The position numbers and the translations under genes were made by a program. The notes beneath the pieces were generated by a model that was not told where the DNA came from, made no database searches, and saw only the letters and a program-made list of their open reading frames with translations. A DNA stretch of 64,000 bases from Schmidtea polychroa (taxonomy: Eukaryota), in the NCBI GenBank assembly GCA_044892525.1, contig CM097885.1, positions 2,296,001 to 2,360,000 on the forward strand, read 5' to 3'. Shown here one piece after another: positions 4,269-40,154 of the stretch (position 1 is the first letter of the stretch; the number at the start of each line of letters is the position of its first letter).

Positions 4269-4784
4269 CTAATGATGCAAAGGTGGCACAATAATGACTG
4301 GCTTATCGGCATGATGAAGAACGTAATCACTTACACTGCCCAGAAATGTTCGCCTTAATAAACCTTCTCCTCGATTTGCCATTAGTATGACATCAGCCCG
4401 ATGGTCGTGACAGACAGAGATTATGCATTCTCCAACTCTTGAATCCACCCGGATGAAGCCTTTGCATTTCCAACCCTTTTCAGTTAATTTATGTATATAA
4501 TCTATCACTAACGCTTTGCCTTTGTCAATTTGCTTTTGAATTTTCGCATCCAAATCTTCCATCGGCAGCCAGGCAGCCTCCATTCCGATTCCTACAGCAA
4601 TCGTGTTACATATGGGCTCAACTATGTGAATCAAATGAACGACATCATATTTTCTCATCATATTGTTTGAATACTAGTCCAATGCTCATCGGCTGACTTC
4701 ACTTTTGTCGATCGGAATGATTATTATTCTTTCTGATTCATTTTTCATTTCCACCGAGGTTTTTGATCGTTCCGAATCGGTCAT
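4269..4784 (-). pseudogene. Universal stress protein (UspA domain), intronless, two in-frame stops in the N-terminal part
   Basis: C-terminal USP signature ADVILMANRGEGLLRRTFLGSVSDYVLHHADKPVIIVPP. The frame extends to ATG 4784 as ...RIIIIPIDKSEVSR*ALD*YSNNM, with TGA and TAG where R and W would be expected. Confidence 0.88.
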
Positions 4785-6617: not shown

Positions 6618-6986
6618 TTACAACAATACATTTTTTCGCAATTCCACAAGTAATGCATGAATTATTTCTCGTTTCTGTAGATTTACAAAACATGTACAAC
6701 TATCATCCCCACAAGTATTCTGCATATTATTTTTACAAAAATCACAATTTTCAACATCATCGGTATAACATGTAATCGTAGCATGATCCATATGAATTAA
6801 ATCTATTACATTTATTCCAGTTATTTCATAAATTTTGTAAAACACAACTTCTGGAGCACAATACATTAAGGAATTGTTCAAATTCGGATAAAAATCTTCA
6901 ATTTTATCAATCAAAATTTTTAGTATAGTTTCTAAACAAAAATCAGTAAATTTAAAATAAAAACAGTTACCTTCATGTTCAATCAT
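6618..6986 (-). CDS. Conserved Cys-rich hypothetical protein (neighbour of the TBP-like gene); probable 39-nt intron 6970-6932
   Basis: Motif FYP..CAPE..KI..TGIN plus C-terminal CxxC/Cys cluster. Homologs at 40645-41052 and 49134-49519. Confidence 0.75.
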   Translation of the reverse strand: MIEHEGNCFYFKFTDFCLETILKILIDKIEDFYPNLNNSLMYCAPEVVFYKIYEITGINVIDLIHMDHATITCYTDDVENCDFCKNNMQNTCGDDSCTCFVNLQKREIIHALLVELRKNVLL

Positions 6987-7491
6987 TGTTGAAAAAATAT
7001 TCAAGCAAATCCTCGTTACTTATATTTGAAGAAATTGTTAAAGATCCAATCAAATCCTTTACATCGTTTATAATTCCTTCAACAATAGTATGAAAATCTA
7101 AATTTTTAATACCTAGTACAACTATTTTACCACTCGAAAATATATTTACACATAGTGGATTATATTTTGTATAACGCAGAGCGGGAAATAATTCAGGCTC
7201 ATATATACAATCTCCATCTAATAACTTTGCTAAATTATTCAAATTAATAGATTGTTCAACCTTGGTAGCTATAGTAAGACTTTGAACTTGAATATCTTTG
7301 ATATTATATTGCAAATTCTCGAATTCGATAGGCTTCTTACAACCCATTATACGACATTTACCATTTTTGAAAAATATAATAGTATATTTTCCAGTTTTGT
7401 CAACATATTGTTGTGGTTTACACTTGGGGAAATTCATCATACCAACAGTTTCCAAAGACACACGACCTCTATAATTAATATTTGTCAACAT
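6979..7491 (-). CDS. TATA-binding protein (TBP)-like protein encoded by Polinton-1
   Basis: Two TBP-type repeats: TIIFFKNGKCRIMGCK and IYEPELFPALRYTKYNPLCVNIFSSGKIVVLGIK, compared with canonical TBP YEPELFPGLIYRM..PKIVLLIFVSGKIVLTGAK. Confidence 0.9.
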   Translation of the reverse strand: MLTNINYRGRVSLETVGMMNFPKCKPQQYVDKTGKYTIIFFKNGKCRIMGCKKPIEFENLQYNIKDIQVQSLTIATKVEQSINLNNLAKLLDGDCIYEPELFPALRYTKYNPLCVNIFSSGKIVVLGIKNLDFHTIVEGIINDVKDLIGSLTISSNISNEDLLEYFFNND

Positions 7492-7546
7492 TTCTACTGA
7501 ATATTTAAAAAATCAAGTATATATATATATATGTTATATTATAGAG

Positions 7547-7996
7547 CAGTGCTCTTCAACCTTTCGCAGTCGTCGGAACCCTTCCAAAAACTTTTGCAGT
7601 CGTCGGAACCCTTCCAATAAAAATTTCCCCATGTATATGTGGGCATGTATATATGTATTCAATTGGGGTTGTCGATGTGGTAATTTATAAAAAAATAATG
7701 CACTTTATAATATAAAATTATTTTATTTAAATAATTAATGGCAAAAATATAAAGTTTAACATAAAAAAAATAGAAATTTGATATTAAATGGTACTCAATG
7801 ACTAGGTTGAGCCTGTTTTTTGCTACAAATTACATTGAAATCTGGTACAATTCTTTTATACTATAAAATATAAATTATTATATGTTTATTTATATTGAAA
7901 ACTTTTTTTATAAGAAATCATAAAATTTGTTCGCGGAACCCATAATTTTTTATACGGAACCCAAGGGTTCCGCGGAACCCAGGTTGAAGAACACTG
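7547..7996 (-). mobile_element. hAT (Charlie-like) MITE, 450 bp, inside Polinton-1
   Basis: TIR CAGTGYTCTTCAACCT with 8-bp TSD TTATAGAG (7539-7546, 7997-8004). Minus-strand remnant IVPDFNVICSKKQAQPSH* resembles a hAT transposase C-terminus. Confidence 0.9.
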
Positions 7997-8065
7997 TTAT
8001 AGAGTAATTAAATCAATTTATTCTTTACGATATAAACAAAATTAATTTTTAAATAAATATTAAAA

Positions 8066-8692
8066 ATGGAACTAAGAAATGATGCTGTATATCAAATAGT
8101 CGGACCAAGTGGTAGCGGCAAAACTTTGTTTGTTTGCAAATTACTAAAATCACATTTATTTAAATCAAAATTTAACAAAATTTATTGGCATCGAGGTGCT
8201 GATCAAGAACACGGATTGACTCAATCAAGTTTCTGTAAATTGAAAAATATGAAAATAGTAGAGGGATTTGATAAAAATTGGTCCAGTAGACTAAAGAAGA
8301 GGGATGTCATAATTATTGATGACTTGTATCAAGAAGCTAATAAAGAAAAGAATTTCAATAATTTATTTACCAAAATCAGTAGACACGTTGGTGTAACTGT
8401 TATTTTTATAACTCAAAATCTATTTCATCAAGGTGGTGCACATCGAACACGTAATTTAAATGTACAATATTTAGTTATTTTCAAGAATCCTAGAGATGTA
8501 ACAGTGATTGATTTTCTTGCACGTCAAGCATACCCTAACAATCGTAATTTTCTTATCAGTGCATTTCAAGATGCTACAAAAATACCTCATGGATATATAT
8601 TTCTTGATTTCACACAACAATGTCCCGATGATTTACGAGTAAAAACAGATATTTTCAACCCAAAAGGTGCCATGGTTTATAAACAAAGTTGA
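8066..8692 (+). CDS. A32/FtsK-like DNA packaging ATPase
   Basis: Walker A GPSGSGKT, Walker B IIIDD, SRH and ITQ motifs. Confidence 0.93.
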   Translation: MELRNDAVYQIVGPSGSGKTLFVCKLLKSHLFKSKFNKIYWHRGADQEHGLTQSSFCKLKNMKIVEGFDKNWSSRLKKRDVIIIDDLYQEANKEKNFNNLFTKISRHVGVTVIFITQNLFHQGGAHRTRNLNVQYLVIFKNPRDVTVIDFLARQAYPNNRNFLISAFQDATKIPHGYIFLDFTQQCPDDLRVKTDIFNPKGAMVYKQS

Positions 8693-8710: not shown

Positions 8711-9244
8711 ATGTTTCTAAAAGCAAGGGTGAAAAATATTAGGAAATTAAGAAAAAGTATTAAAAAGAGTATTAAAGTTCAAAAGGTTCCACCAACAACT
8801 AGTTATACACCATCTAAAAAACTTGTAACTGAAAATTTCTCTGCAATGAATCTTATTTCGAAAAATCCTAAACCTAAACGTGAAACCCGTAAAACCCGTA
8901 AAGCCGGTAAAAAAGTAATTAAAAATCATCGCAGTTTTCCATTTTTTAATGCATTGTTAAAGGCCCCGAGTATGAAAAGAATGAATATATTGCAATCATT
9001 CCCAAATTTTGTTGTCGATGATTTACTCAATATTATACTTAAAGTAGTCAAAGGCAAAATTAAAATCAGTAAATCAAAAAAGCATTTATTGAGCAAACAT
9101 AGGAAACCTTTGTTATCATTAGTAAATAATAAAAATCGTAAGCAAATGAGGAAAATTATATATAAACAACAAGGTGGATTTATTGGTGCATTGATACCTC
9201 TGGCATTATCATTATTAGGTGGAGTTGTAGGAAATCAATCATAA
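8711..9244 (+). CDS. Highly basic virion core-like protein with a C-terminal GG|F adenain-type site and hydrophobic tail
   Basis: K/R-rich and ends KQQGGFIGALIPLALSLLGG. A homolog in Polinton-2 ends KQQGGFLGTLIPIVLS. Confidence 0.7.
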   Translation: MFLKARVKNIRKLRKSIKKSIKVQKVPPTTSYTPSKKLVTENFSAMNLISKNPKPKRETRKTRKAGKKVIKNHRSFPFFNALLKAPSMKRMNILQSFPNFVVDDLLNIILKVVKGKIKISKSKKHLLSKHRKPLLSLVNNKNRKQMRKIIYKQQGGFIGALIPLALSLLGGVVGNQS

Positions 9245-9305
9245 ACAATGGGTGCTAATCCTTCATTACCTAATTTAAATTTTAATTTTAAATCTTCTTG
9301 CTGTA

Positions 9306-10433
<1,128 letters not shown>

Positions 10434-11438
10434 ATTTTTATACTATTTTACCGAGCAATAGTTGCCCATTAATTCATCTAGACAATCAAGCCAGTAAATT
10501 TATGGTCAATCTCCAGAATCCGATTTCTTTAAATGGTGACTGGGAAGTTGCACTGCAAGATTTTACATTCGTGTACAACACATTCCCATTTTATAGTCAA
10601 TGTAAGATTGATTTCAAAAGGAATATTGTGAAAACATGTAGCGGTATCTTTATTATCAGTAATTATGATAAAACATATCATATTCCGAACCAAATATTAG
10701 ATTCGCATTGCTATATATTTTACAAGGATGGATTAAATATCAGTTGTGATTTTAAACCATTTACAATAACATTCGAAACTATTGAAGATGCCAAACGAAT
10801 GGGTTGCAATAAGCTGAAAAATATTGTTATGGAGACCGAGTATTTATTACGTTTTAATCTATTTGAAGCAAACAGTATAGTGAAAGAAGAAATCAAAATA
10901 TCTGTGTCGTATAATGATGAAGTTGAAGAATCATTCACCTTTGCTGATGAATTATATTTTGATAAACTTGATGTATTACTTAAATATTTAAAGTTCAATT
11001 GTTCACACATATTTAAAAATTTGGAAATTGTGAAAGATTTGATGTTTACCTTCAGTTTGAATGAGGATATTTGCGAAGTTACATTTGATAAAAATTTGGC
11101 AAATTCACTTGGATTAGATAAGCAAAAATATCGAGAAAAATCGACTGGTATACGCAAACCTAGAATACTAGAACATCATCAACAAATGTTCATATATACT
11201 AACATTATCGAACCCATAATTGTTGGTGATTCCAGTGTTCCTCTTTTGAAATCGGTATGGATTGGAAAATATGAACATGATGAAGTTGTCAATATAAATA
11301 TCGATAATCCCATGTATTTACCAATAGCAAGTTCATGTATAAACAATATAGAAATAAATATTCGTGATGATAGTGGAAAACTTATAAACTTTCCAAAAGG
11401 TTCAAAAACTCATTTGACATTACATTTTCGTAAAGTAG

Positions 11439-11807
11439 ATGGCTAATTCTGATATTATTAGTATGTATAGTGATAGCCAATCTGGCGGTGAATTACCATA
11501 TTTTATTGGTAAACAGTACGGATCGGGATGGTTGAGAACAATTGGTAGATTTGCATTGCCTATTCTTAAACGTATTGGTAGTTTTGGTATGAAAACTGCA
11601 AAAGATGTTATTATGAATGAACAGAAAATATTACCATCTCTAAAATCAAATGCTTTAGCTGAATTAGGGAAAGTTTTACCCGGGGTTGCAGGTATGTTTC
11701 AAAAAGAAAAACCTCCAGCTCCAGCTCCAGCTCCAAAACGTAAAAGACATGGAATATCACGTATAAACAAACGAATGAAAGGACATGGAACTATATTTGC
11801 AAAATGA
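11439..11807 (+). CDS. Small virion protein with GG cleavage-like sites and amphipathic helix
   Basis: QSGGELPYFIGKQYGSGWLRTIGRFALPILKRIG is highly conserved with 33107-33508 and lies between the two capsid genes. Confidence 0.75.
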   Translation: MANSDIISMYSDSQSGGELPYFIGKQYGSGWLRTIGRFALPILKRIGSFGMKTAKDVIMNEQKILPSLKSNALAELGKVLPGVAGMFQKEKPPAPAPAPKRKRHGISRINKRMKGHGTIFAK

Positions 11808-13027
11808 TTTGTGGTAAATCTGAATTATGCATATTTGATAGACCATCGCCCCAGGCTGTAATAGAATTTGGGGCATTTGAGGAAGTTTTTCCTATGAATT
11901 CAATTACCGATAGTAGAAATGATGTAGAATTTTACATCAATGGTTCTCAAACAGAATATTTAGATTTGAATGATACTTTATTGACTGTTCAAATCAAGGT
12001 TATAGATAAAGATAAAAAGGCTTTGGGTGATGCTGATGCTACAATACCTAATAATTTTTTGTTTCATACACTTTTTAAAGATGCTATTCTTGGATTTAAT
12101 AATATCAAGATTGAAGGTGGCAACAATACATATATCCACAAGGCGATAATAGAAACTATTTTAAATTATAATACCGACACCAAAAATACATGTCTTACTC
12201 CTATGGGTTATGCAGCAAGTGATGACGAACGGAAAAAATGGATTAAAGGCTCAAAGATTTTCACCATGTGTTCATCATTACAACTCGATTTTATGGATCA
12301 ACCGAAATATTTGCTTCCAGGAGTTAATGTCCACATTCGATTGAAAAGATCCGATTCTGCATTAACTCTTACTAGTGCTACAGGTGCACCAATATGTCAA
12401 TTAGTTGATGCAAAATTATTAGTGAGAAGAGTTCGAGTAGACCCATCAGTATTAGCGGGTCATCAATTAGGTCTTAATTCGAAACATGCAATTTATCCAT
12501 TAAAAACAAAGGAAATTGTACAATTTGCAATTGCTAAAGGTGCTTCATCATTCTATAAAGAACAGATATTTGGTGATAGAAGAATGCCTAATTTTATTCT
12601 GGTAACATTTCAAAGTGAAGCACAATATAATGGATCATATACTGCTTCCAGCTCAATTTTCAAAAACTTTGCTGTTACTTCATTAACTCTGTCGAAAAAT
12701 ACTGATTATCGAGAAACATATACTCAAGATTTCGACACTGATAATTACTGTTCTACATATATGCAAAGTATTGTTAGAAATCTGGGATATTTAGATAAAA
12801 ATTTGAATTGTGGAATAACTCTTGAAGAATTCAAAACAAAATACCCATTTTTCACATTTGTTTTAGCCCCTGATTTTGATTTAAATCAGAGTCAATTACC
12901 ACAAAACGGTAATTTACGATTGGATATAAAGTTTGCGAGAGCCATTACAGAACCTGTGCATGTTATAATATATGGAGTATTTGAAAATGAAGTTCAAATT
13001 ACTGCAAACAGGACCGTGCTGGTATAA
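11804..13027 (+). CDS. Major capsid protein (double jelly-roll, PY/hexon-like)
   Basis: 407 aa with KSELCIF, EYLDLNDTLL, DFMDQPKYLLPGV and GNLRLDIKF motifs; lies upstream of the protease. Confidence 0.9.
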   Translation: MICGKSELCIFDRPSPQAVIEFGAFEEVFPMNSITDSRNDVEFYINGSQTEYLDLNDTLLTVQIKVIDKDKKALGDADATIPNNFLFHTLFKDAILGFNNIKIEGGNNTYIHKAIIETILNYNTDTKNTCLTPMGYAASDDERKKWIKGSKIFTMCSSLQLDFMDQPKYLLPGVNVHIRLKRSDSALTLTSATGAPICQLVDAKLLVRRVRVDPSVLAGHQLGLNSKHAIYPLKTKEIVQFAIAKGASSFYKEQIFGDRRMPNFILVTFQSEAQYNGSYTASSSIFKNFAVTSLTLSKNTDYRETYTQDFDTDNYCSTYMQSIVRNLGYLDKNLNCGITLEEFKTKYPFFTFVLAPDFDLNQSQLPQNGNLRLDIKFARAITEPVHVIIYGVFENEVQITANRTVLV

Positions 13028-14373: not shown

Positions 14374-17300
14374 TTAATAACTTAGCATTATTTAACATTA
14401 ACTAATTATTTTATAGTTGATAATATTATAGACAAATTTTAAATGAAAGATTAAATTACATTTATTATTATTATTATTATTATTAAATAAATAATACATT
14501 TTCATTCAATAAATAATTATTTAACTTTTATTAGGCAAATTTTATCCTAAATATTGTAATTCGTCTATGGGTCATGACAATAAATGCCACAAAAATATGA
14601 AGAAATATTATCGCCAACCTTTTAATGGCATCAACTTTTTTATTTGCCCCATATGCAAAACTTCCCAGAGTGTAAGGTATAAGGAATTTTATAGTCAACA
14701 TTCTCAGCACTTAAATTCTTTCAAAACAAATAAACAAGAACTGTTTAAAATAATAAATAAGAATAACATTGAAATTGTAAATATTTTAAATAATAACACA
14801 AAAAAGAAATCTAATAAAAGACCTGCTGAACATAGGGTGTCTAAAATTAAAAATAAAATTATAAAAACTGAAGTTATTGAGATCAGTGACGACGAAATTA
14901 TTAAAAATGAAGTCATTCTACTCAGTGATGACGAATGTAATAATATTACATATACTATAAATCATGATATTATAAATGATAATATTGATACTATAAATGC
15001 TATAAATGAAAATATAAATAATGATAATACTATAAATACTATAAATCAAATAGGTGGATCATCTTTAGCGATTGAGCCGATAATAGAATCAAATTTAAAT
15101 GGCGCCATTCGAACTATTCGATTTAATATTGCCGATTCACAATTAATTAAAATTATAATAACGGATAAAATCACTGAAAAGTTAACATCTGAAATAAATA
15201 ACATGGGTAGCGTCAAAATTCAATTCGCTATTCTTATAAGATTTGAAAAAGATGGGGAAATCCGTGACAACTACTTTTCAAATAACGCCGAGATCTTTTC
15301 GGATAACTTTTTAATTGAGGGAGTTAATAAGTTAAACGAAAAAATTGAAAAGTTTACCTATTTAGGTAGTGGCTGGAGAGTAATTAATATCTTAGAGATT
15401 GATTTCATTCTGACTAAATTTGCTCCTATTTGTCGCCTATCTGGTCATAGTTACATTCGTACACCCGCAGATTTGAAATCTAAAGGAGCAATTATTAATG
15501 TTAAAAATAAGGATCATAAGTGTTTCCTTTATAGTATTCTCGCGCTCTTGAAAAAGATGAAATAGGTAGCCACCCTGAAAGAGTTTCAAAATATGAAAAT
15601 CTTTTAAATATTCTTAATTACAATGAAGTCACGGATTGTCCGATGAAATTGTGTAATATACCTAAATTCGAAAAGAAAAATTTAGACTTAAATCTTGCCA
15701 TAAATGTTCTGGCTTATACCCCTACTGTGATAGTTGATGATGATCAGGTTCCTAATGACTATGTTTTTAAACACCCCCACTTAAGTATAATTCACAGATC
15801 AACGGTTACTATCGGTACTCCAATTTATTTATTACTCTTGGAAAATAAGGATAATTATCATTACACCGCAGTGACCAACATTACACGTTTAATGAACTGC
15901 CATCGTAATAATGACTGTAGTATTCAAATAAGATGCAAATGGTGCCCACATTGTCTTAACGGTTTTCGATTAGACAATGCTTTCACTAAACATGTGGCCC
16001 TATGCAGTAAAAATCAAACGGGTACAACCCTTTACACTTTACCCGAAAATAAATATTTAGAGTTTCAAAATCATTCAAAGAGAATCACCCCACCCTTTGT
16101 TATTTATGCCGATTTTGAATCGGTTTTACCTAAAGATGTTAAACATCATCAAATACATTTACCTATTTCAGCAGGTCTTTTATTAATAAATAATCTTAAC
16201 AATAGAAAATCGTATTACGAGTTTTATGGTCTTGATTGTATACCTCAATTTCTTAAAAAAGTAGAGGAAATTGCTGTCACAATTGTCCTACCTTATTATG
16301 AGCTTGAAGTGAAAAAACGGTTAAGACCTATGACTTTTGCTGAGGAACGACAATTCAAATCTTGTAGGAACTGCTATCTTTGCAAGAAGGTTTTATCCCT
16401 TGCTGTTCGAGATCATGACCATTTTACTGGTAATTATCTCGGTGCAGCCTGTAGGAAATGTAATATGGCTCGCAGAATTTATAAACAGCTGCCGATTGTA
16501 TTTCATAATTTACGAGGCTACGACTTACACCATATTTTAAAATATGGTCTCAATGGCTTTCCTTCTTGGAATTTGAATATAATACCCACAAGCACAGAGA
16601 AATTTATCTCGATGATTGTTCACATTAAAAAATTAGCTGTTCGTTTTATCGACAGCATACAATTTGTTAATTGTTCTTTGGCTAAGGCTGTAAAAACTCT
16701 AACTGATCTTCCTTTGACTTCGTCGGTTTTTGATAGGCTAATAATAGATGCTAAAGCCATATTTCCTTATGATTATGCGACTGATTTGGATGTACTTGAA
16801 ACCACTTATGAATTGCCTCCTATTTGGTCTGGTGTTACTGAAGATGAGTATGCTAAGGCTCAACTTATTTGGACTCAACAACGTTGTACTAAATTGACTG
16901 ACTATATGTTAACTTATCAAAAATTGGATGTATTCCTCCTTGCGGACTATTTCCAACAATTTCGTGCCAAGGCCATTGCATACAATGGTCTAGAACCTCT
17001 AAACTTTTATGGTATTCCGGGTATGTCATGGGCCTCAGCGCTTATGACATTAACTGAGCCTATAGAACTTTTACAGGACATGGAAATGTTCAATTTTTAC
17101 GAAGGAGGAATACGTGGTGGGTTAACATTTGTTAACAAACATTACGTTGCTGCTTCTGATAATACAGAATTATTATATATTGATATAAATAATCTGTATG
17201 GTTGGGCTCTTAGCCAAAATCTTCCTTTTGCTGATTTCACTTGGGTGTATGATGGATTGAATGATGTATTGCTTGAGTGCATGAATGCTGACATTGAAAT

Positions 17301-18468
17301 CCTTCCCTATGGTTATACCATAGAAGTGGATATAGATATTCCAGAAATTTTTCATGATTTCTTAAATGACTTTCCTCTTGCTCCTGAGAAAATGTGCCCG
17401 CCTGGTTCGAAAGTTGAGAAGTTGATGCTCACGCATTGGCCAAAGAAGAACCATGTTCTTCATTGGAGGCTTCTCAAGCTTTATTTGTCTCTTGGTGCCA
17501 AAGTTGTACACATCCATAGAGCTACAAAATTCAAGCAAGCACCGATTTTTAAAAATTATATAAATAAAAATACACAGCTAAGAGCTGAAGCAAGCAGTGA
17601 ACTGTACAGAGATTTATTCAAATTGTATAATAATAGCTTGTATGGTAAATCCGTTGAAAACCTTAAGAAGAGATTAAATTTACGACTATGTAATTCCGCG
17701 GAAAAATTAATTACATATTCATCAAAACCATCATTTAGAAAAACCATCAAAATTGATGATGATCTTTTTGGTGTACATCTCAATAAGGAGTCTATATGTT
17801 TGGATAGACCCAGCTACATCGGACAATCAGTGCTGGATTTATCCAAACTAAGGATGTATCAATTACAGTACATAGAATTATCAAAATATAGGAGTCAGTT
17901 TAACTGTGATATAAATATAGTTGCGGGTGATACCGATAGTTTCTTCTTAGAGGTCAAAAATGTAAAGCTTGACGTTCTTTTGCCAGCGATGATTTCGGAT
18001 GACTTGTTAGACACATCAAATTATGATCCCTCTCATCCTTTATATTCTAGGAGACTCGACTCAGTTATAGGAAAGTTTAAGGATGAGAGTAAGGGTGTAG
18101 GATATAGTGAGTGGGTTTTCTTGCGACCAAAGTGCTACAGTCTTTTAGGAAATAAATCTACTATGAGAGCTAAGGGCGTAAAATTACCAGGTACAGATAT
18201 AAAACATCACTCTTATTTAGACTGTTACAACAACAACACAGTTATTTCTGTACCTCAGACTAGAATAGGAACCCGAAATCATCAGCTTTTTACCTTTAAA
18301 AACTCAAAGATTGCTTTAACTAATCATGATGATAAAAGAGCTTGGGTAGAGAAAAACTCTAGTTTTGCATATGGTCATTATTTAGGGGTTGATGTCATTG
18401 ATAATGACGATAATGATATTCAATCAGGAGCAGATCCCGATCTCATCAATCAACATCTACAAGATTAA
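13675..18468 (+). CDS. Protein-primed DNA polymerase B; predicted 5 exons (13675-13720, 13772-13834, 13891-13965, 14012-14137, 14535-18468); one frameshift at ~15551
   Basis: Exo motifs YADFES, FHNLRGYD and YQKLDV; Pol motifs DINNLYG, KLYNNSLYGK and GDTDS; HNH/EndoVII-like insert DHDHFTG..AACRKCN. ORFs 14567-15565 and 15643-18468 join if one A is added to the run at 15551. Confidence 0.93.
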
Positions 18469-18841: not shown

Positions 18842-19399
18842 ATGTGTGCAGAATATAAGTATTTTCATAAATTTATTAAGAAATTACTGATGACCACGAG
18901 ATCATTCAAGTTTTTAAACTACACCGTTGAAGATTTTATGAACAATTATGATACTCTCACTGAAAAGGAAACCATAAAAATTTTAGAAATTTTCAAACAT
19001 TCCTCCATTGGATATTTGATTGATTTATTTAATTACAATAAATGCATTTTGAAGTTATCGATTTATTTGATGCATTTAGACAAAGCAATAGTAGATAATG
19101 ATTCATTGAATGAATGCTTTTGGAATTGTATGGATTTAAGGCTGGAACCAGGATATAGTAGTAGATTGATTTATGAATGGATATCGAAATCCGAATTGAT
19201 TGAAAATAAGCTAAGGAAAAAACTCAATGATGGTAGGAAAATGTATTTAACTTGTTACATTTGTAAAGAAAATCAAGTATCGGTTTTGTTTTTACCTTGC
19301 GGACATGTAATTGTATGTTCTAAATGCCATGATTCAAATGTTCGCAAATGTAAAGCATGTTCAATGTATATTAATGAGTATCATACTATATACATTTAA
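18842..19399 (+). CDS. IAP-type C3HC4 RING finger protein
   Basis: C-terminal CYICKENQVSVLFLPCGHVIVCSKC....KCKAC; no BIR motif is recognisable. Confidence 0.85.
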   Translation: MCAEYKYFHKFIKKLLMTTRSFKFLNYTVEDFMNNYDTLTEKETIKILEIFKHSSIGYLIDLFNYNKCILKLSIYLMHLDKAIVDNDSLNECFWNCMDLRLEPGYSSRLIYEWISKSELIENKLRKKLNDGRKMYLTCYICKENQVSVLFLPCGHVIVCSKCHDSNVRKCKACSMYINEYHTIYI

Positions 19400-25281: not shown

Positions 25282-26084
<803 letters not shown>

Positions 26085-26186
26085 AATAGTCTAAAGAATA
26101 CTTTACAATAACAACGTAAAATAAATGATACAAATAAGAACTAAAACAATAATTACATTAAATAAAATTTTATTTCAATACAAAAT

Positions 26187-29100
26187 TTATTCAAGAACAT
26201 ATTGATGTTCCCTTTCATATGGAAAGTGTGGGTGACCATAATCATCATTTGGGAAATATGGTTGAACGTATTGATCATTTTCTTTGTCCGGATCACTAAC
26301 TTCAGCATTGTTACTATGACCCATAACCGTGTTAACTATTTTATAATGACCATATGCTACACTTTCATTTTTATTTACCCAATGCCTCTTATCATCATTA
26401 TTAGTTAGGGCTAATTTTATATTTTTTATTGTGAATAACTGATGATTTTTACTTACTATTCGAGATTGTGGTACTGAAATCATCGAATTATTATGATAAC
26501 AATCAAGGTACGATTGATGTTTTAAGTCGGTACCCTTCAATGTTATTCCCTTAGCCTTGTTGCTCTCTTTATCACCCAAAAGGCTATAGCATTTAGGCCT
26601 TAAAACACCCATTCCTTATATCTACCCCCTTTATTTTCATCTTTGAATTTACCAATGACGGAATCAAGAGCTCTTGAATATAATTCATGAGATGAATCAT
26701 AATTCGATGTATCCAGTATGTTATCTCTTACCATAGCTGGTAAAAGCACATCTAATTTGCATCCTTTAACCTCTAAAAAGAAGGAATCAGTGTCACCTGC
26801 AATAATATTGATTTCACAGCTAAAATCATCTCGATATTTTTGTAAATCAATATATTGCAACTGATACATACGTAATTTGGATAGATCCAGTACAGATTGA
26901 CCAATGTAACTAGGTCTATCCAAACACACTGAATCCTTATTTAATAGAACGGCTATTAAGTCATGATCTATTTTATAAGTCTTTTTAAATGTGGGTTTAG
27001 AGGAATAAGTAATCAGTTTAGAAGCTGAGTTACACAATCTCAAGTTCAATCGTTTCTTCAAATTTTCGACTGTCTTTCCATATAAACTATTGTTAAGAAG
27101 CTTAAAATAGTTTTTATCAAAAGTATTTGTTGACACAGCTCGAAGTTGGGTGTTTGTGTCAATGTAATTTTTGAATATAGTAGACTGATGAAATTTGATA
27201 GCCCTGTGAATTTGAGTAACTTTTACTCCAAGAGAAAGATAAAGTTGTAGAAGTTTCCAATGAAGAACATAGTTCTTCTTGGGTAAATGTGTAAGCATCA
27301 ACTTCTCCACTTTAGATCCTGGAGCACACATTTTTTCAGCTGCAACCGGAAAATCATTAAGTTTATCGTGAATAGATGTTGGAATATCTAGATCCACTTC
27401 CATAGTATACCCATATGAAAGTGAATCTAGATCAATAGATTCACAGTCTTTTAATAAATTAATTAATTCAGGCTCATCCGTCACCCAAGAAAATTCACCC
27501 CTAGGTAGTTTTTGGCTAAGAGCCCAGCCGTACAAATTATTAATATCGAAATATAGAAGTTCAGTATTTTCATTTGTATTAACATAATGTTTGTTTACAA
27601 ATGTCAACCCCCCCCCCTCTTATACCACTCTCAAAGAAATTAAACATCTCCATGTCTTGAATTAACTCGATGGGTTCGTCTAAAGTCATCAGAGCTGAAT
27701 TCCAAGACATACCGGGAATGCCCAAGAAGTTTAAAGGTTCAAGACGATTATGAGCTAAAGATTTATTTCGAAACTGCTGGAAAAAGTCAGCTAAAAGAAA
27801 GACATCTAGTTTTAGATAGACCATCATATAATCACAAATGTTATTACAGTTGGTTTCCCTCCATATAATTTCAGCCATAGAATATTCGTCTTCAGTAACA
27901 CCATCCCAAATTGGCGGTAATTGGGGAGTTGACCGAAGCACTTCGAGACTAGTGGCAAAATTATATGGGAAAATTCCTTTATTATTAACAATGGTTCCCC
28001 TAAATTCTGATCGTGTTATCGGTAAATTAGTAAGAGTTTTAACAGCGTCATTTAACGAACTATTAATAAATTGGCAGGAATCGATAAATTTAATATTTAA
28101 ACCACCTATTCTCGCAGATAATGTTAAGAACTTTTCAGTTGTCGTTGGAATGCATGAAATATTCCAAGATTTAAAGCTACTCAATCCGTATTTGAGGATA
28201 TGATGAAGATCATACCCTCGCAAGTTATGGAAAACAATTGGAAATTCATATCTTATTTGACGAGAATTATTACAAGTTGAACAAGCTGCTCCCAAATATT
28301 TACCAGTAAAGTGATCATGATCTTTAGACGGGTTTACTAAAGTTTTCTTGCAAAGATAACACATAACTGCGGAAGAAAAAGAAATAAGGTCAGCATCTGT
28401 AAAAATAATTTTCTTTTTCGAATTTTTATAAAAATAAGGTAAAACTGTTTTCATACCAATTTTTTCAATCTCTTTAAGGAAACTAACAATTCAATCTAAC
28501 CCTAAAAAACTTTTATATAATTTAGTCCCTGTGAAATTATTTATTAGCAAAAGGCCTGCAGAAATCGGCAAGTGCCTTTGAAAGTATCTATTATAAGTAG
28601 GTAAGATAGCCTCAAAGTCAGCGTAAACCACAAAAGGGGGAGTAACTGTTTTAGACCAATCATTAAAATATAAATTCTTATTTAATGGTAAAGTATATAA
28701 AGTTGTTCCTAATTGATTTTTCTCACATAAACCTTTATGTTTATCTAAAGATTCAAGTGTACGGAAGCCATTTAAACAGCGATTACACCACAGACTTTGA
28801 ATTCGAGTACTAGTAACAGTAGAATTACGACAATTTAAAAGTCTATCAAGATTAGTGACTCCTATATAATGAAAAGAATCACTGCTTTCCAACAAAATTA
28901 AATTAATCGGTCTTCCGCCTACAACTTTCGATCTATGTATGATGTCAACATAAGGATGTTTTAATACTTCAGAATTATTTAAAATATCCACTAAAGCATC
29001 CTCATCGTATGCAAGAACATTAATCGAAAGCCCTGGATTTTTATCTTCAAATTTAGGTATATTACAAAGACGCATCGGTAAGTCAGAAGGATCAAAGACT

Positions 29101-31268
29101 AGATCAGACAAATTATAATTACTAATTCGATTTCTATGATTGCCATCAACGTCATCGTATTTCAAAATAGCCAACATGCTATAGATGAAACACAAATCAT
29201 CCGTATTGTTGATATTTATTACGCAATGTTTATTTAATAATGATTTAGGAGTTGGATGAGAACCCCTCCCACTCAATCTACTTATTTGAGAAAATTTTGT
29301 AATAACAAAATGTATTTCTTTAATTTTATTAATAATCCAATTACTTACCTTTTCATTAATTAAAGTAATTTTCTCATTGAGAATAGCAATACCTTCATCT
29401 AAAAAGGTATCACTCATGGGTCTTGCAGAATTTGAAATGACGAAAGATTGAAATTCTCCATCTTTTTCAAATTCCACTTCGATACAAAATTGAATCTTTA
29501 CAGAACCCATTTCTCTGGTAACATTATTAAATTTAAGGGCGTGGGTACGGTTAAAGAATTTAAATTTAAATTTTCAACCATCATTTTAACTATGGCATGT
29601 GATTTACGTAAATCATAATTTACAACCGGTTCTAATGATCCACCATATTGTATCGTACTATCATTAATTATTTCGGCATCAGAGTCAGAAAGAGTTATTA
29701 TATCAACTCCATTTTGTGAGTCAGATAGAAAATCTATATCCACATCATTTTCAAAATCAGGAAGAGTTACCATATTATTTAAAACTACATCATCGTCTTC
29801 AGAATCCGAGAGAATAATAATTTGATCATTATTATTTAAATTTTTAATTTTAGATGGACGAGGGTTACTTATAGGCAAATCAGATTTCCTTTTATTAATT
29901 GAGAAATTATTTGGTAATTTAAAAATTTGTTTTTTCTTTAAAAGATTAAATCGATTTAAATGATCTTTATGTTGATCATAAAAGTTAGAATAATTTAATT
30001 TTTCAGTGGAATTACAAATGGGGCAAACAAAATAAATAACACGGTTATGGGGTTGGCCATAGTACTTTTCCATAGTTTTATGACAATCTTTGTCATGAAA
30101 GGATGAATTACAAAACTTTGGATATAAGATACCTAAGTTTCAAAAGAAATTATCAAAGGATTGCATTATAAATAAAAATGAATATATGAAAATGAATATA
30201 TGAACATCACAAATTGATTATTAGAAATAAATATTTAAAAAATCAAAAATACTATACACACACATAAAATCTTTCATCCAATAAAATTAAAATGATTTGT
30301 TAAAAAGAATCTAATTGGTCAACTCGATTTTTAAAATTAATATATATACTGAGTGCATGAAATTATTATATTTAATGATGCAACAATATAAAAGTAATTT
30401 TATTATCATTATCTAGTATTGCTTAATTATTATTCTAGAAAGTTCAGTGAAAAAGATGGAGAAACAAGTAAATTCAGATATAATAAAGTTAATTCTACAG
30501 GAAAATTCAACATCGGCAGTTAATCTTATTAGAAAATCTCCTGTTCAGTTCCTACAATATTCTATGGAATATTTTAAATACCCAATAACTTATTCATTTA
30601 AAGTAAATATATTTATATCATTTAATCAAATATTAATTAAATTTTTTATTAGGAACCTGTAACTTTGAAACAGAGTTTATATAATATACAAATAGGTAAA
30701 ATTGGAGATATCGATAGAAAAAATATTTTAAAATTATTGTTGGCTATCAATAAAAATATTGCATTAAAATTTTTTTTTATTGATAAATTTAAATTGATTA
30801 AATAAAATAATTAAATTTAAATAAAATCATAAATTATTATTATCTTATAAATTCAAAATTGTTTTAATTTTTACTTTGAGTAAATTAAATTAAATTCAAA
30901 TTTGTAAAATAAATTAAAATGAAATATAATATTTAAATTAATATTAATTTAATTAAAATGAAAATATCTTTAAATACTAAAAAATATATATAATACTTAC
31001 ATTTTATCATGTTTGCATTAATTTTCTTGGAATTATTTCGAACCATTTTATCATTGTTGGTGTTTAAGTTTTTGTTGTTCATGTTATTTGAGTGGTTGCA
31101 AATCTTGCTATTGACGTTATTCATGTTATTTGAGTTGTTGTAATTGTTGTTGTTGTTGCAATTCATTACCTAGAAAACATTATAAGAGAATTATTAATTA
31201 ATTAATTACATAAAACTTACAAAAGTTTGGGTATTGATAAAAGTGACTTTTAAATGAATTGTTTTCAT
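26187..31268 (-). pseudogene. pPolB of Polinton-2; predicted exons 31268-31221, 31169-31001, 30132-26187; disrupted
   Basis: Fragments 29498-30073, 28491-29510, 27579-28454, 26600-27607 and 26187-26612 are collinear with the element-1 pPolB. In-frame TGA at 28491; frameshifts at ~29505, ~27610 and ~26605. Confidence 0.92.
30447..30800 (+). pseudogene. Truncated homolog of the 5824-6415 gene, antisense within the predicted pPolB intron
   Basis: QFLQYSMEYFKYPITYSFK|gt..ag|EPVTLKQSLYNIQIGKI aligns with EFMQYKLNYLYCPISYTFK|EPVTLEKCFYNVRLSKI. Confidence 0.7.
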
Positions 31269-31433
31269 TTATATACTACATATTACACAACAATGATTCA
31301 ATAAAATAGTAACCAATAAAATTCAAGAAACCAATCACATAATCACATACCATTAAATTATATTTACTAGTAGAATGACATAAAAAATTACAAACTAACA
31401 AGATAATATTTATTTGATTAAATTTTCTTATAT

Positions 31434-31819
31434 TCAAAGATCTTTCATTGACTTCAACCACGCTAAACAATGTTGCCCACATGTTTTTGTCAATCGACTT
31501 TGATAGCGAATTTTATTATATTCAATTGGCATTAACAATGATTGAAGTTTTGATATTAATAGAGGAGGATAATAAAACCCCATGGGATCAAATGCATATA
31601 TTTTTTCCGGTTTCACATAAACTGCGAGCCAATGCTCTCCCTTGAGATTACAAGATTGAGTATTTACAATTAAAGCTTTGTTTACATCAATATATGGTAT
31701 TTTATCTAATGGAAAAACTCCAAGAAATTCAGCTCCGAACAATCTTCGACCTATGTATTCAATCTGAATAGAACTATTATCAATAAATTAAAGTAATAAA
31801 AATGAAATTCTTACTTCAT
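31434..31819 (-). CDS. Adenain-like protease, 2 exons (31819-31815, 31773-31434)
   Basis: GEHWLA, FDPMG and TCGQHC motifs. A 41-nt intron follows ATG AA, at the same position as in element 1. Confidence 0.9.
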
Positions 31820-31881
31820 TTTTAATAATTATTGTTTCCTAATTTGGTTTATAGTTCAAGCCAATCATTTTCAAACTTTAT

Positions 31882-33110
31882 TTACACTAGTACTGTACGA
31901 TTGGATGTAATTTGAATCTCTTTTTCAAAGACGCCATAGACTATTACAGAAAAATCGATTCTGTTAGAGGTGTTCCAAATTTAATATCAAGTCTTAAATT
32001 TCCTTGCTGTGGCAATTGAGTTTGATTAAGATCAAAGTCTGGAGCCAATACAAATGTAAAGAATGGATACTTTTCTTTAAAGTCAGACATACTAATTCCA
32101 CAATTAATATTCTTATTAAGGTAACCCATGTTTCTAATTATTGACTGCATATAACTTGTACTATAATTATCATTTTCAAAATCTTGACTATATTTTTCAC
32201 GATAGTCGCTTCCTTTCAATAAAGTTATTGATTTTACATTATTGTGGTCGTACATTGAATAAGAATTTGTTAGTGATCCATTATTTCTTTTATTTCTTTG
32301 AAATGTTACAAGGATAAAATTTGGTAATTGCCGATCACCAAAGATTTGTTCTTTATAAAAAGAAGAAGATCCAGTAGGTAACGAAAACTCGACAACTTCC
32401 TTGCTTCTCAAAGGATAAATTGCATTTCTTGAAGCAAGTCCAATTTGATGACCAGCTAAAACGGATGGTTCAACTCGAACTCTTCTTACCATTAATTTTG
32501 CATCTAATAATTCAATTTTAGGTTCTACTTTTGTACATGTTAAACTATGTGATGGACTTGATCTCGTCAATTTAATTTGGACACTAACACCAGGTAATAA
32601 ATATTTTGGTTGATCCATAAAATCAAATTGTATTGGTGAACATAATGAAAATGGTTTAGATTTTGCAATCCACGTTTTTCTTATATTATCATCTTCACTG
32701 TACCCCATACCTTCTAAACATGTACGTTTTGTATCATGATTGTAATTTAATATGGTTTCGATTAATGCTTTATGAGCAAATGTATCATTTCCTCCTTCAA
32801 CTTTAATAGAATTAAAAATTAATTCAGCTTCTTTAAAAAGAGTTTGGAAAAAGAAATTGTTTGCAGTTACAATAGAATCATCAGAAATATTTTCACCTAC
32901 ATTATTTACAACTTTCAACTGAAGATAAAGTAAAGTATCATTCAAATCTAAATATTCGGTTTGAGATCCGTTAATGTAAAATTGAATTGAAGAGGTACCA
33001 GTATCCGTAATTGAATTCGTTGGATAAATATCTTCAAATGAACCATGCTCAATTACTGCTTGAGGTGATGGTCTATCACAAATACATAATTCAGATTTTG
33101 CACTAATCAT
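31882..33110 (-). pseudogene. Major capsid protein with a frameshift near the C-terminus (~31950)
   Basis: Homologous to 11804-13027. The missing tail VIVYGVFEKEIQITSNRTVLV* continues in another frame. Confidence 0.9.
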
Positions 33111-33508
33111 TTTTCGAATATAGTTCCAAAGCCTTTCATTCTTTTGTTTATATGCTTCTTTAATGTTTTTCTGCGTTTAATCATTCCACCTTTTTGTTCA
33201 TTCTCTTGTTTATTAAAAACATCAGATACTTTATTAATTACAGTAGGCAAATGTTGAATTACATCAGGTAGTGAATGTTTAATTTCAGATAAAACATTTG
33301 ATTTTAAAGCAGGTAGAATTTTTGAATTGTTATTTATTACATCATGTGCAGTTTTCATACCAAAATTACCTATGCGTCTAAGAATTGGTAAAGCAAATCG
33401 ACCTATTGTTTTTAACCAACCTGTTCCATATTGTTTACCAACAAAATATGGTAAATCTCCACCAGATTGACTATTACTATAAAAGTTTACAATATCAGGA
33501 TTATTCAT
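33107..33508 (-). CDS. Small virion protein (homolog of 11439-11807)
   Basis: QSGGDLPYFVGKQYGTGWLKTIGRFALPILRRIG. Confidence 0.78.
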   Translation of the reverse strand: MNNPDIVNFYSNSQSGGDLPYFVGKQYGTGWLKTIGRFALPILRRIGNFGMKTAHDVINNNSKILPALKSNVLSEIKHSLPDVIQHLPTVINKVSDVFNKQENEQKGGMIKRRKTLKKHINKRMKGFGTIFEK

Positions 33509-34532
33509 TTATTTTACGAAAATGTAGTGTTAAATGTGTTTTGGTGTCTTTTGAAAATTTAACTAAATTTCCACTATCGTTGCGAATATTAATTTCAATG
33601 TTGTTTATAGATGAAGATGAAATTGGAAGGTACATTGGGTTCTTTATTTCTAACTGTACAACCTCTCCCTGTTCATATCTTTTAATCCATATCGATTTTA
33701 ATAGAGGAACTCTTACATCACCAACATTTATTGGTTCAATGATATTAGAATAAATAAACATTTGTTGATGAATTTTAAATATTTTTGGAATTTTCACACC
33801 AAAAAAGTCTTTTTCATTATAAGTTTGATTCTTTAATCCTAAAGCTTTTGTTAATTTTTGATCAAAGGTAATATTTGAAATATCATCTACAAGTGTTATT
33901 TTTACCAATTCTTGATTTTGAAGATGTATTTCTTTAAATGGAGATGGATTAATTGTCATTAAATACCCTCGCAACTCTGATAAAGTAGTTAAGAATAATT
34001 CATCTTCAAAATAATGTTCGAATTTTGTCTTGATATCATAATTTATAGTTATCCCAATTTGTTCAATGATATTATGTTCAGTAAATTTAGGTAGTTTAAT
34101 TCGACAATGGTCAGTTTTGCTAATGATTGATATGGTTTTTAATTCAAACTTAGATGCATATTTGGTGTCAAGAAATGATATTTTAAATGGAACATGTGGA
34201 CAAACTATCACTAAGTTTTCATATCTTTCCAAGAACACATCAACATCTGGATTATATGTAGAATTTAAAATTTCTAAGATTTTGTTTTGATTATCAATTT
34301 TCAAGTATTTAGTTTCTTCGCATGATTTTTTAAATTCGTATTGTACCCATGAATTACTGTAATACGGAAAATGATTATACACAAATGTAAAATCAATCAA
34401 AGCTACTTCCCACTTCCCATTCAAATAAATTGGGTTTTGAAATTCAACTTTAAAATTACTAGCATTATTATCAGGATAAATAAGAGGACAACTATTACTA
34501 GGTAAAATCATATAAAACTGGTTTTCCTTCAT
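33501..34532 (-). CDS. Minor capsid protein (penton / PZ-like)
   Basis: FYMILPSNSC...LNGKWEVAL...LTLHFR; homolog of 10379-11446. Confidence 0.87.
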   Translation of the reverse strand: MKENQFYMILPSNSCPLIYPDNNASNFKVEFQNPIYLNGKWEVALIDFTFVYNHFPYYSNSWVQYEFKKSCEETKYLKIDNQNKILEILNSTYNPDVDVFLERYENLVIVCPHVPFKISFLDTKYASKFELKTISIISKTDHCRIKLPKFTEHNIIEQIGITINYDIKTKFEHYFEDELFLTTLSELRGYLMTINPSPFKEIHLQNQELVKITLVDDISNITFDQKLTKALGLKNQTYNEKDFFGVKIPKIFKIHQQMFIYSNIIEPINVGDVRVPLLKSIWIKRYEQGEVVQLEIKNPMYLPISSSSINNIEINIRNDSGNLVKFSKDTKTHLTLHFRKINE

Positions 34533-34537
34533 AATAT

Positions 34538-35661: not shown

Positions 35662-35731
35662 TATTACAACATGATGTTAATATATTTAAATCTAAGTTAT
35701 GTTTATCCGGTAATGAATTCTTAGCACCCAT
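35528..35731 (-). CDS. Small MGxxxS protein overlapping the integrase start (homolog of 9248-9475)
   Basis: MGAKNSLP...TSCCNN...RSRWFWW in the same genomic position as in element 1. Confidence 0.6.
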   Translation of the reverse strand: MGAKNSLPDKHNLDLNILTSCCNNEGNIFQKGQIKEENIREKTQNDLDKPERSRWFWWCRKTCKKSK

Positions 35732-35828
35732 TATGATATTATATTTTAAGAATTTAATGAGGAAATTGTGCTTATAGCCGATAATACAATTGGAATTAAT
35801 GTACCTAAAAATCCGCCTTGTTGTTTAT

Positions 35829-38800: not shown

Positions 38801-38999
38801 CAAAACACATTCCGACACTAGCCAAATTACATTGTTTTCACACTTATGTTGAACTGCATTTTCGGAGAAAAGTTGGGAGCAGTAAATGTCCATAAATCTA
38901 AGTAAAATGGTTTGATTCGATTTTTCTATACCAAAATACAACTTTTTAACCATGTTTCCTTTCTTGAACTCAAAATTTATTAACATTCGACCCACCCTA
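35829..38999 (+). mobile_element. hATm-type DNA transposon, 3171 bp
   Basis: TIR TAGGGTGGGTCGAA with 8-bp TSD TTGTTTAT (35821-35828, 39000-39007). Confidence 0.9.
36229..38552 (+). pseudogene. hATm transposase, one frameshift near 38395; 5' end uncertain
   Basis: GFDGKQD, CDGTNTNTG, WLICLLHANELP and SRWLT motifs. The catalytic-E segment PCHSQAVER is in a shifted frame ending at TGA 38552. Confidence 0.85.
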
Positions 39000-40080: not shown

Positions 40081-40154
40081 TTCATTAATATTATTGTTTA
40101 TATTTGTTTAAATTTATTATTATAAGTATATAAAAATTATTTAAATTTTATTAC

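Follow-up and report, generated by a model that had tools for sequence, protein, structure and literature searches.

Known Virus-Encoded TATA-Binding Proteins and the Schmidtea polychroa Locus

TATA-binding proteins (TBPs) encoded by viruses are a known kind of factor. The gene family presented here is new for the group of elements that bears it, the Polintons (Mavericks), where it had no prior description. We analyzed a window of 64,000 nt from Schmidtea polychroa (contig CM097885.1, positions 2,296,001 to 2,360,000 of the forward strand; "the window" is this whole stretch of DNA). The window is AT-rich, with a GC content of 0.23–0.39 per 2-kb bin, and contains two Polinton-type elements (elements 1 and 2) and a fragment of a third. 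Elements 1 and 2 carry genes for a protein of the TBP fold (TBP1 and TBP2, respectively; Table 1), which is referred to below as vTBP.

The cellular TBPs (eukaryotic core and archaeal; 1YTB, 1C9B, 1MP9, and 2Z8U) belong to the same Pfam family as vTBP and share its saddle fold. As in these proteins, the C-terminal repeat of vTBP has an acidic stirrup with both glutamates, both phenylalanines and the helix H2. In contrast, vTBP has no H2 in its N-terminal repeat, a variable first phenylalanine there and an Arg and a Met (R47, M49) in place of Val and Thr, and its gene is part of a mobile element that is present in hundreds of copies. TRF2/TBPL1 and the lineage-specific TBP-related factors are likewise diverged members of the TBP family that serve subsets of promoters. 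However, they are host genes with two full repeats, and the two such paralogues of this host group with plant TBP, apart from the Polinton clade. Concerning viruses, the TBP-like proteins of giant viruses (Nucleocytoviricota) and mirusviruses also present a virus-encoded TBP fold (32 BFVD matches at E ≤ 1e-3), but they have two full repeats and are 9–21% identical to vTBP. The TBPs of giant viruses have mostly lost the glutamates that contact TFIIB, with just ~40% conservation at one of the two positions, and almost all TBP-bearing giant viruses are credited with a virus-encoded TFIIB-like gene (Ravarani et al., 2020). The Polintons are the opposite, as vTBP keeps the glutamates and the open reading frames (ORFs) of the ~15-kb elements that were scanned with Pfam include no match to the TFIIB families (PF00382, PF08271) and no RNA polymerase gene.

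The beta- and gammaherpesvirus TBP mimics (ORF24 of Kaposi's sarcoma-associated herpesvirus, UL87 of human cytomegalovirus), which serve late genes with a variant TATT box, are alike in the working that we propose for vTBP. There, a nuclear DNA virus relies on the host RNA polymerase II (Pol II) and brings a TBP-like factor of its own to a late promoter with a TATA-like but non-canonical box. However, these proteins match the TBP1 model weakly (ranks 27 and 29, E-values of 5e-4 to 7e-4, TMq 0.41–0.42), are far larger and bind Pol II directly and not via TFIIB. vTBP is not a member of that group.

Closer to the Polintons, a gene label "TBP" appears in the legend of a map of MELD viruses (Starrett et al., 2021; PMC8502044), and the preprint of that work (10.1101/697771) lists TBP among "homologs of host proteins." The label is prior notice, as a legend entry only, for some midsize linear double-stranded DNA viruses with adintovirus-like genes. 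The text does not discuss it and gives no architecture, distribution, promoter motif or function for "TBP." Sporadic TBP genes have also been described in a paper on Cymbomonas, where they lie in mirusvirus-like repeat elements and not in Polintons. A description of a Polinton/Maverick TBP was not found in the full-text literature, and supplements or figures may hold more. The first-pass annotation of the window had set TBP outside the known Polinton gene set; this stands as far as a describing paper is concerned and has to be tempered by the legend label of Starrett et al. (2021).

Fold and Conserved Residues of the Polinton TBP

Both window genes encode proteins of the Pfam family PF00352. 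TBP1 matches it in two stretches with 62.5 bits (E = 3.5e-17) and TBP2 with 53.2 bits (E = 2.8e-14), at a cut-off of 22.9 bits, and the two proteins are 53% identical to each other. The AlphaFold2 model of TBP1, built from a 50-sequence alignment, has a predicted local distance difference test score (pLDDT) of 94 and a predicted template modeling score (pTM) of 0.80. All 44 of its PDB matches at E ≤ 1e-3 are TBP chains, aligned over ~175 columns with a TMq of 0.58–0.67, and a search of solved structures with the family profile returned 35 chains, all of them TBP. Identity to solved TBPs is 21–26%. Finally, hhalign aligned the vTBP family with canonical two-repeat TBPs with a probability of 98.8% (E = 1e-16). 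The first-pass annotation was therefore right about the TBP fold of both ORFs and about their coordinates. It had also reported a third, relic copy at about 49530–49795, which is a real TBP relative but a broken one: residues 72–119 are encoded at 49780–49640, and residues 126–149 follow in a different frame at 49640–49569.

The protein is asymmetric and, with 145–170 aa, shorter than the canonical core (~180 aa). In the model its C-terminal half is a complete repeat (strands 65–77, 95–97, 104–107, 114–118, and 122–128; helices 84–91 and 134–168). The N-terminal half has four strands (2–10, 28–31, 37–41, and 45–51), a short helix (13–17) and no H2. In the profile-profile alignment to canonical TBPs, 8+5 gap columns stand at the place of the repeat-1 H2, and vTBP thus departs from the pattern of two complete repeats each ending in H2. 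Canonical TBP, as known from the yeast and human structures, has four DNA-kinking phenylalanines, two per repeat. F41, F102, and F118 are kept in vTBP and the first phenylalanine of repeat 1 is not, its position being taken by Y, I, V, F, C, or K (alignment blocks read by eye). On the 50-sequence alignment 13 columns are invariant, among them N6, Y7, F41, M49, G50, E100, and F118, and N4, R47, E98, P99, and F102 are conserved at ≥90%. R47 and M49 align with V and T of the canonical GKxVCTG strand S5. The two C-lobe glutamates through which TBP contacts TFIIB are both retained (E98, E100). The features that had been read from the sequence earlier, namely a C-terminal repeat with the stirrup and both phenylalanines and a shortened N-terminal repeat with a single one, are borne out by these columns.

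According to Ravarani et al. (2020), the two C-lobe glutamates touch an Arg and a Thr of TFIIB/TFB, and in eukaryotes TFIIA, TAF1, Brf1/2, Mot1, and NC2 dock on the N-lobe, a surface to which a basic cluster on H2 belongs. vTBP is a candidate for binding TFIIB and DNA. A co-fold of vTBP residues 1–150 with a TFIIB core (P0244, residues 100–308; 92% identical to the host exon) scored 0.25, against a mark of 0.34. The host's true TFIIB gene is split by an intron. Two other candidates, L112 and L113, were dropped as TFIIB, as their sequence resembles Brf1.

Polinton Identity and Gene Order

Both TBP genes of the window reside in adintovirus-like Polintons. The hallmarks found in the elements are a protein-primed PolB, an rve integrase, an A32-type packaging ATPase and a double-jelly-roll capsid, and element 2 is also bounded by terminal inverted repeats (25709–26027/41197–41515). 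The repeats are 99% complementary; ~162 nt of each arm is unique (25709–25870/41354–41515) and the remainder is a trinucleotide repeat. Terminal repeats of element 1 were searched for and none were found. Pfam scans of the element ORFs detected no protease family, and no fold search was aimed at an Adenain/Ulp1-type protease.

The single proteins support these assignments to different degrees. The integrase of element 1 scores 21.7 bits for rve (cut-off 32.6) and 17.5 bits for Chromo, under the cut-off; the low rve score is due to the insertion of a repeat into the gene. Its relatives (53 and 33% identity) exceed the cut-off with rve scores of 48.5 and 54.5 bits, and with 34 bits for Chromo. 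Concerning the polymerase, two fragments in element 2 pass DNA_pol_B_2 with 36.4 and 49.4 bits (cut-off 25.8; 77 bits in the metagenome locus L091), and the element 1 PolB ORF is 59–73% identical to the fragments that pass. PolB is a single ORF of 1089 and 1405 aa in the relatives L034 and L091, respectively. At E ≤ 1e-3, the capsid model of element 1 matches 159 predicted viral structures in BFVD. Those that have a name within the 50 listed are mostly double-jelly-roll capsids of giant viruses, virophages and adomaviruses, together with one of a MELD virus, and the strongest hit, with 24% identity, comes from the annotation of a Cotesia bracovirus.

Element 2 is decayed, and its PolB and integrase are broken into three pieces each. 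The first-pass annotation had pointed out the open TBP2 frame in this setting. We count ~4 frame breaks per ~3.9 kb of PolB plus integrase, at which rate a break-free ORF of 447 nt is expected, by estimate, roughly two times in three, and the open frame is not significant.

In metagenomes, relatives of vTBP are encoded by 186 of 424 pattern matches, and the set retained has 80 loci. When the proteins of the window elements were run against these loci with tblastn, 36 of the 80 proved to hold a Polinton gene (for the ATPase, integrase, capsid or PolB), as did 26 of the 35 that measure ≥3 kb. Eight of the remaining nine long loci were scanned and hold small accessory ORFs; a gene resembling phospholipase A2 (PLA2) adjoins the TBP gene in three of these eight, one of which also holds a KilA-N gene, as seen in the long loci L087, L091, and L093. 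The lineages are deep, as their ATPases are 35–39% or 60–76% identical to those of the window. With these neighbors, the earlier proposal of a Polinton/adintovirus lineage that conserves an asymmetric TBP is upheld.

A distant lineage (L087, L091, L093, L106, L108, and L110) shows a parvovirus-type PLA2-like gene (PF08398) upstream of TBP on the same strand, at a distance of one or two ORFs, with KilA-N and C2H2 zinc-finger genes close by.

The order of TBP and ATPase differs between sources. In both window elements and in 20 of 20 further copies of the same genome the two genes are divergent. Of the 27 metagenome loci with both genes, 24 have TBP ahead of the ATPase in the same orientation, and two have the pair divergent. 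It lies downstream of the capsid gene in L072, which has an ATPase, and in L057, L063, and L074, which hold none. The head-to-head order is thus particular to S. polychroa lineages: it had been described correctly for the window and is rare among the metagenome loci. From start codon to start codon, the gap measures 83–132 nt in intact copies and 574 nt in element 1, where an insertion resembling a miniature inverted-repeat transposable element (MITE) occupies 7507–7996 and accounts for the difference. A public contig links 7506 directly to 7997, skipping this insertion. In three loci of the same genome (L021, L022, and L027) the ATPase is 90–93% identical to ATPase1 but the TBP only 57% identical, a mismatch that suggests an exchange of the TBP module between lineages or an unusually fast evolution of TBP. 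The earlier description of the gene as vertically kept oversimplifies: its position varies, and an ATPase at 93% identity can be paired with a TBP at just 57%.

Origin, Selection and Abundance

The host TBP loci include intronless two-repeat paralogues of 214 and 202 aa. A quick IQ-TREE search was run on 73 rows (31 family members, 40 two-stretch hits and the two host paralogues). Since the search was short and the branches are long, only the single split between family and host was read from the tree. The Polinton TBP family lies on one side of a branch of length 1.39 with a Shimodaira–Hasegawa-like approximate likelihood ratio test (SH-aLRT) support of 98, and both host paralogues lie on the opposite side with plant TBP. 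The family is accordingly not nested in host TBP. A recent retrocopy of a host gene is ruled out by this split, by the 21–26% identity and by the ratios of nonsynonymous to synonymous substitution (dN/dS). Four proteins with two matched stretches (P0093, P0094, P0102, and P0119; 169–365 aa) nest within the Polinton TBP clade and are maybe duplicated or fused forms.

Nei-Gojobori dN/dS among the four subfamilies of the S. polychroa genome is 0.08–0.33, with one pair of subfamilies not computable. Inside subfamilies, at 1–2.5% divergence, pN/pS is 0.37–0.62. These comparisons indicate that purifying selection has acted on the TBP gene in Polintons that are deeply diverged from each other.

Among 1.84 billion cluster representatives searched, 1024 match at E ≤ 1e-3; 127 of these reach E ≤ 1e-10, and 6 reach E ≤ 1e-30. 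About the first 95 listed are short proteins that match from end to end. A second search gave 107 relatives, all of which (107/107) carry PF00352 and come from ENA, JGI, Logan, and MGnify only. Among the 117 family members whose source was checked (these 107 and 10 further ones), none is of NCBI or UniRef origin, and therefore routine annotation misses the family, probably through its sitting in masked repeats. Four of 20 proteins looked up have a name: three NCBI two-repeat proteins outside the family (two archaeal TBPs and one of a plant) and one JGI family member, merely called "hypothetical protein."

In the 781-Mb S. polychroa genome, a Pfam TBP search yielded 2998 candidates, and the 150 scored were all over the cut-off. 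With TBP1 as query, 150 of 4070 candidates were scored, and all 150 are ≥99% identical to it, 149 of them without a stop. Copy counts are hence lower bounds, at least 150 copies at ≥99% identity, and they indicate that the family was amplified very recently and heavily in this genome.

A Box Upstream of the Element Genes

When the short divergent spacers were aligned, all four subfamilies proved to share one block. The 8-mers in the 90-nt upstream regions of 240 ORFs (≥100 aa) were counted without bias; these ORFs were drawn from 37 sources, namely the two window elements and all metagenome loci of ≥3 kb. The top words are all variants of one word, YATAAAC[A/G]. Specifically, TATAAACA is present in 51 of the 240 upstream regions (5.3 expected), ATAAACAA in 47 (5.4 expected) and CATAAACA in 24 (1.6 expected). 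Of 227 regions, 43 have a start of the motif [TC]ATAAAC[AG] at −40 to −21 relative to the ATG and 24 have one at −60 to −41, with 1.9 expected per 20-nt bin. The motif is strand-specific (its reverse complement reaches 0–3 per bin) and is nearly missing 3′ of the ATG. Several boxes fall within the coding region of the gene before them and are conserved nonetheless. The 10-mer ATATAAACAA is found five times in the window (1.65 expected), a count that 3 of 100 shuffles reach, and all five sites are within the two elements on the coding strand.

The box was also tallied by gene class within 100 nt upstream, and the tally was repeated on clusters of 80% identity. It precedes 26/28 ATPase ORFs (9/9 clusters), 10/10 capsid ORFs (9/9 clusters), 13/16 integrase ORFs (12/14 clusters), 9/15 ORFs of the orf355 family (9/15 clusters) and 5/8 of the orf122b family. 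In contrast, it precedes none of the TBP genes (0/70 ORFs; 0/50 clusters) and no PolB-family gene (0/2 ORFs, plus 0/2 C-terminal fragments). Upstream of the TBP genes, a canonical TATAWAWR box is found in 26/70 cases versus 8/70 on the opposite strand, and an initiator-like TCA[G/T/C]T in 47/70 versus 20/70. Both motifs occur together at a spacing of 22–38 nt in 11 of the 70.

A scan of IMG/VR with the capsid alignment for related Polintons gave no relative. With the TBP patterns, the same database gave 13 matches and one relative (L031), a canonical two-repeat TBP and thus outside the Polinton family; its contig belongs to a large virus with ribonucleotide reductase, PolB, and heliorhodopsin genes.

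A Candidate Element-Encoded Promoter Factor and Its Alternatives

Polintons are usually taken to be reliant on host transcription, and the control of the timing of their genes is not known to have been described. We lean, if only slightly, toward the reading that vTBP is a working TBP of the element, which reads YATAAAC[A/G], recruits host TFIIB and drives the late genes. The vTBP gene would be transcribed first, from a host-type promoter, and its product would bind the YATAAAC[A/G] boxes. The C-lobe, which is unchanged, would cover the TATA half and the remodeled N-lobe, with Arg47 and Met49, the AAAC half. In crystal structures of TBP with DNA, the 5′ TATA half is occupied by the C-terminal repeat and the 3′ half by the N-terminal repeat. 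It is in its 3′ half that the box deviates from the cellular consensus (AAAC versus WAWR), and it is in the N-lobe that the protein deviates from cellular TBP, a suggestive match. vTBP would then recruit host TFIIB and Pol II via its retained pair of glutamates, the host factor being invoked because the scanned ORFs of the elements showed no TFIIB family, and would switch on the module for morphogenesis and integration. Loss of the N-lobe H2, the surface for TFIIA, TAF1, Mot1, NC2, and Brf1, would free vTBP from host regulators. Taken together, these steps would amount to a self-contained core-promoter code, in which a stripped TBP reads, with its rebuilt N-lobe, a private box instead of the cellular TATAWAWR, plugs into host TFIIB and is blind to the regulators of host TBP; this wider proposal is tentative, and we hold it with some doubt.

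Several points weigh against the promoter-factor reading. Every sequence in the motif analysis was selected as encoding a Polinton TBP, and the box may occur in Polintons without TBP as well. ATAAACA also fits the forkhead consensus RYAAAYA, and a host factor or host TBP may read the box. A TATA box usually lies ~30 nt from the start site, and the box stands just 17–50 nt before most ATPase start codons, which would leave almost no 5′ untranslated region. Few PolB-family ORFs have a usable start (the two ORFs and two C-terminal fragments tallied above), so that the split into early and late genes rests mainly on the TBP gene, and the canonical TATA box is present in only a part of the TBP genes (26/70). 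In addition, dS among the subfamilies is saturated (1.1–2.6).

The same observations have to be read against three other roles. As a decoy or competitor, vTBP would soak up host TFIIB, or it would sit on host TATA boxes where, with an N-lobe unable to bind TFIIA or TFIID, no full complex could assemble. It would so damp or redirect host transcription, and the box would serve a host protein, for instance host TBP or one of the forkhead type. The kept TFIIB-contact glutamates are compatible with this, as are the fit of the box to the forkhead consensus and the loss of the N-lobe surface that cellular partners use (Ravarani et al., 2020). However, the DNA-facing residues of the N-lobe (N4, N6, F41, R47, and M49) are invariant or nearly so, which argues for a specific DNA target and not for a loss of function, and at the genes of the element itself the box keeps strictly to one strand and to its position. 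Moreover, GTAAACA, the stronger forkhead site, is outside the 30 most enriched words listed. We consider the decoy role unlikely. An architectural role, in which vTBP bends AT-rich DNA at the ends or at box sites for protein-primed replication, integration or packaging, could draw on the location of TBP2 at the end of element 2 next to the terminal repeat and on the company of the ATPase gene in 20/20 copies of the S. polychroa genome and in 27 metagenome loci. It is nonetheless quite improbable: a bender would have no use for the TFIIB-contact glutamates, the boxes precede start codons and not termini, and the position of TBP relative to the ATPase is not fixed, as in the four loci with TBP downstream of the capsid gene (L057, L063, L072, and L074).

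The gene could also be a passenger, a captured fragment of a cellular TBP without a role that is intact only through the youth of its copies. The small differences within subfamilies (1–2.5%, with pN/pS of 0.37–0.62) and the lack of significance of the open frame in the decayed element 2 are what such a passenger would give. However, the family spans ATPases that are only 35–39% identical, its dN/dS is 0.08–0.33, 13 of its columns are invariant, it forms one well-supported clade, and both the tree and the shared H2 deletion oppose independent captures, which makes a passenger very improbable.

If the wider proposal of a private promoter code is true, a 15-kb element without a polymerase of its own would run a two-step, early-to-late program like that of herpesviruses or giant viruses. 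If true, the private promoter code may also help explain the burst to hundreds or thousands of near-identical copies. An element-encoded TBP with a private box offers a concrete and testable model of Polinton gene control. vTBP is also a natural experiment on TBP, in which the TFIIB side has been kept and the regulatory helix of the other lobe lost, and it may have an altered specificity at the 3′ half of the box.

Gene Map of the Elements and Neighboring Features

The gene module of element 1 is on the plus strand, with the ATPase first of the co-directional genes, and TBP1 and orf122 are on the minus strand. Element 2 lies on the opposite strand. The features of both elements and of the relic, together with the boxes, are listed in Table 1.

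Table 1. Features of the two Polinton-type elements, the relic, and the upstream boxes (window coordinates).
Location	Feature	Position	Strand	Remarks
Element 1	orf122, small Cys-rich ORF	6618–6986	−	No Pfam family; 3′ of TBP1, 8-nt overlap with TBP1 end
Element 1	TBP1, asymmetric TBP-fold gene, 170 aa	6979–7491	−	Pfam PF00352
Element 1	MITE-like insertion with inverted ends	7507–7996		In TBP1/ATPase1 spacer; missing from other copies
Element 1	TATAAACA box	8031–8038	+	35 nt upstream of ATPase1 ATG
Element 1	A32-type packaging ATPase (ATPase1)	8066–8692	+	Pox_A32 32.4 bits (cut-off 22.8)
Element 1	TATAAACA box	8678–8685	+	33 nt upstream of orf177, within ATPase 3′ end
Element 1	orf177, basic protein	8711–9244	+	No family assigned; relatives in 9 metagenome loci
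Element 1	CATAAACA box	9240–9247	+	66 nt upstream of integrase ATG
Element 1	rve-type integrase with chromodomain	9306–10433	+	Split by (ATT)n run at 9695–9803
Element 1	orf355	10379–11446	+	Placed where a minor capsid (penton) gene would be; relatives in 11 loci
Element 1	orf122b, small ORF preceding capsid gene	11439–11807	+	ORF; relatives
Element 1	TATAAACA box	11762–11769	+	42 nt upstream of capsid gene, inside orf122b coding sequence
Element 1	Double-jelly-roll major capsid protein	11804–13027	+	AlphaFold2 pLDDT 81.6, pTM 0.83
Element 1	Protein-primed PolB region	14567–18468	+	Two frames: orf332 (14567–15565) and 941-aa ORF (15643–18468)
Element 2	Decayed Polinton, opposite strand to element 1	25709–41515		Inverted repeats at both ends
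Element 2	Capsid gene	31944–33110	−	Counterpart of element 1 capsid
Element 2	TATAAACA box	33145–33152	−	42 nt upstream of capsid gene
Element 2	orf355-family gene	33501–34532	−	Counterpart of element 1 orf355
Element 2	Two TATAAACA boxes	34575–34612	−	50 and 80 nt upstream of orf355-family gene
Element 2	ATPase2	39442–40080	−	Divergent from TBP2, 74 nt between; Pfam scan
Element 2	TATAAACA box	40095–40102	−	22 nt upstream of ATPase2 ATG
Element 2	TBP2, asymmetric TBP gene, 148 aa	40155–40601	+	PF00352 53.2 bits
Element 2	orf122 relative, 3′ of TBP2	40705–40998	+	tblastn 33% identity over 100 aa, E = 4e-17
Relic	Frameshifted C-terminal half of TBP gene and orf122 relative	49320–49780	−	TBP part 49569–49780; orf122 relative 49320–49505

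A small Cys-rich ORF trails all three TBP copies of the window (orf122 and its two relatives). For orf122, Pfam gave no family, an Atlas search gave scores of ≤0.86 with weak zinc-ribbon leads, and the metagenome loci held no relatives.

Concerning the polymerase of element 1, the frame change within 14567–15643 may mean that the gene is interrupted or spliced. A Cys/His pattern at the junction of orf332 and PolB might be an OTU-like domain, by comparison with adintovirus polymerases. The trinucleotide repeat that yields a poly-Ile run in the element 1 integrase ORF (9695–9803) is the same as that in the arms of element 2 (41143–41353/25871–26027). Two contigs of a public run end in A-runs of 17 and 14 letters, at 8736, just past the ATPase stop, and at 7695, within the MITE-like insertion; if the run holds RNA, both ends may mark poly(A) sites.

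A foreign ORF of 763 aa (36283–38574, plus strand) with a higher GC content (0.39) is inserted into element 2, where the remnants of the integrase and of orf177 flank it. It has no Pfam family and no counterpart in element 1. We also noted at least 13 intronless ORFs of ~301–310 aa with a TFIIB zinc ribbon and one cyclin repeat at C1:23.85–24.19 Mb and C3:38.2–39.1 Mb (e.g., L119:4485–5387, minus strand, and L120:4575–5477, minus strand), some of them in tandem at a spacing of 7.9 kb. In a 10-kb context these TFIIB paralogues are outside Polintons, with just one near a PolB fragment, and their expansion may or may not relate to the TBP-encoding elements. Finally, host-type ORFs stand beside the elements of the window, with TRAF/MATH-domain, universal stress protein and RING-finger genes at 423–941, 4269–4661, 18842–19399, and 42796–44207.

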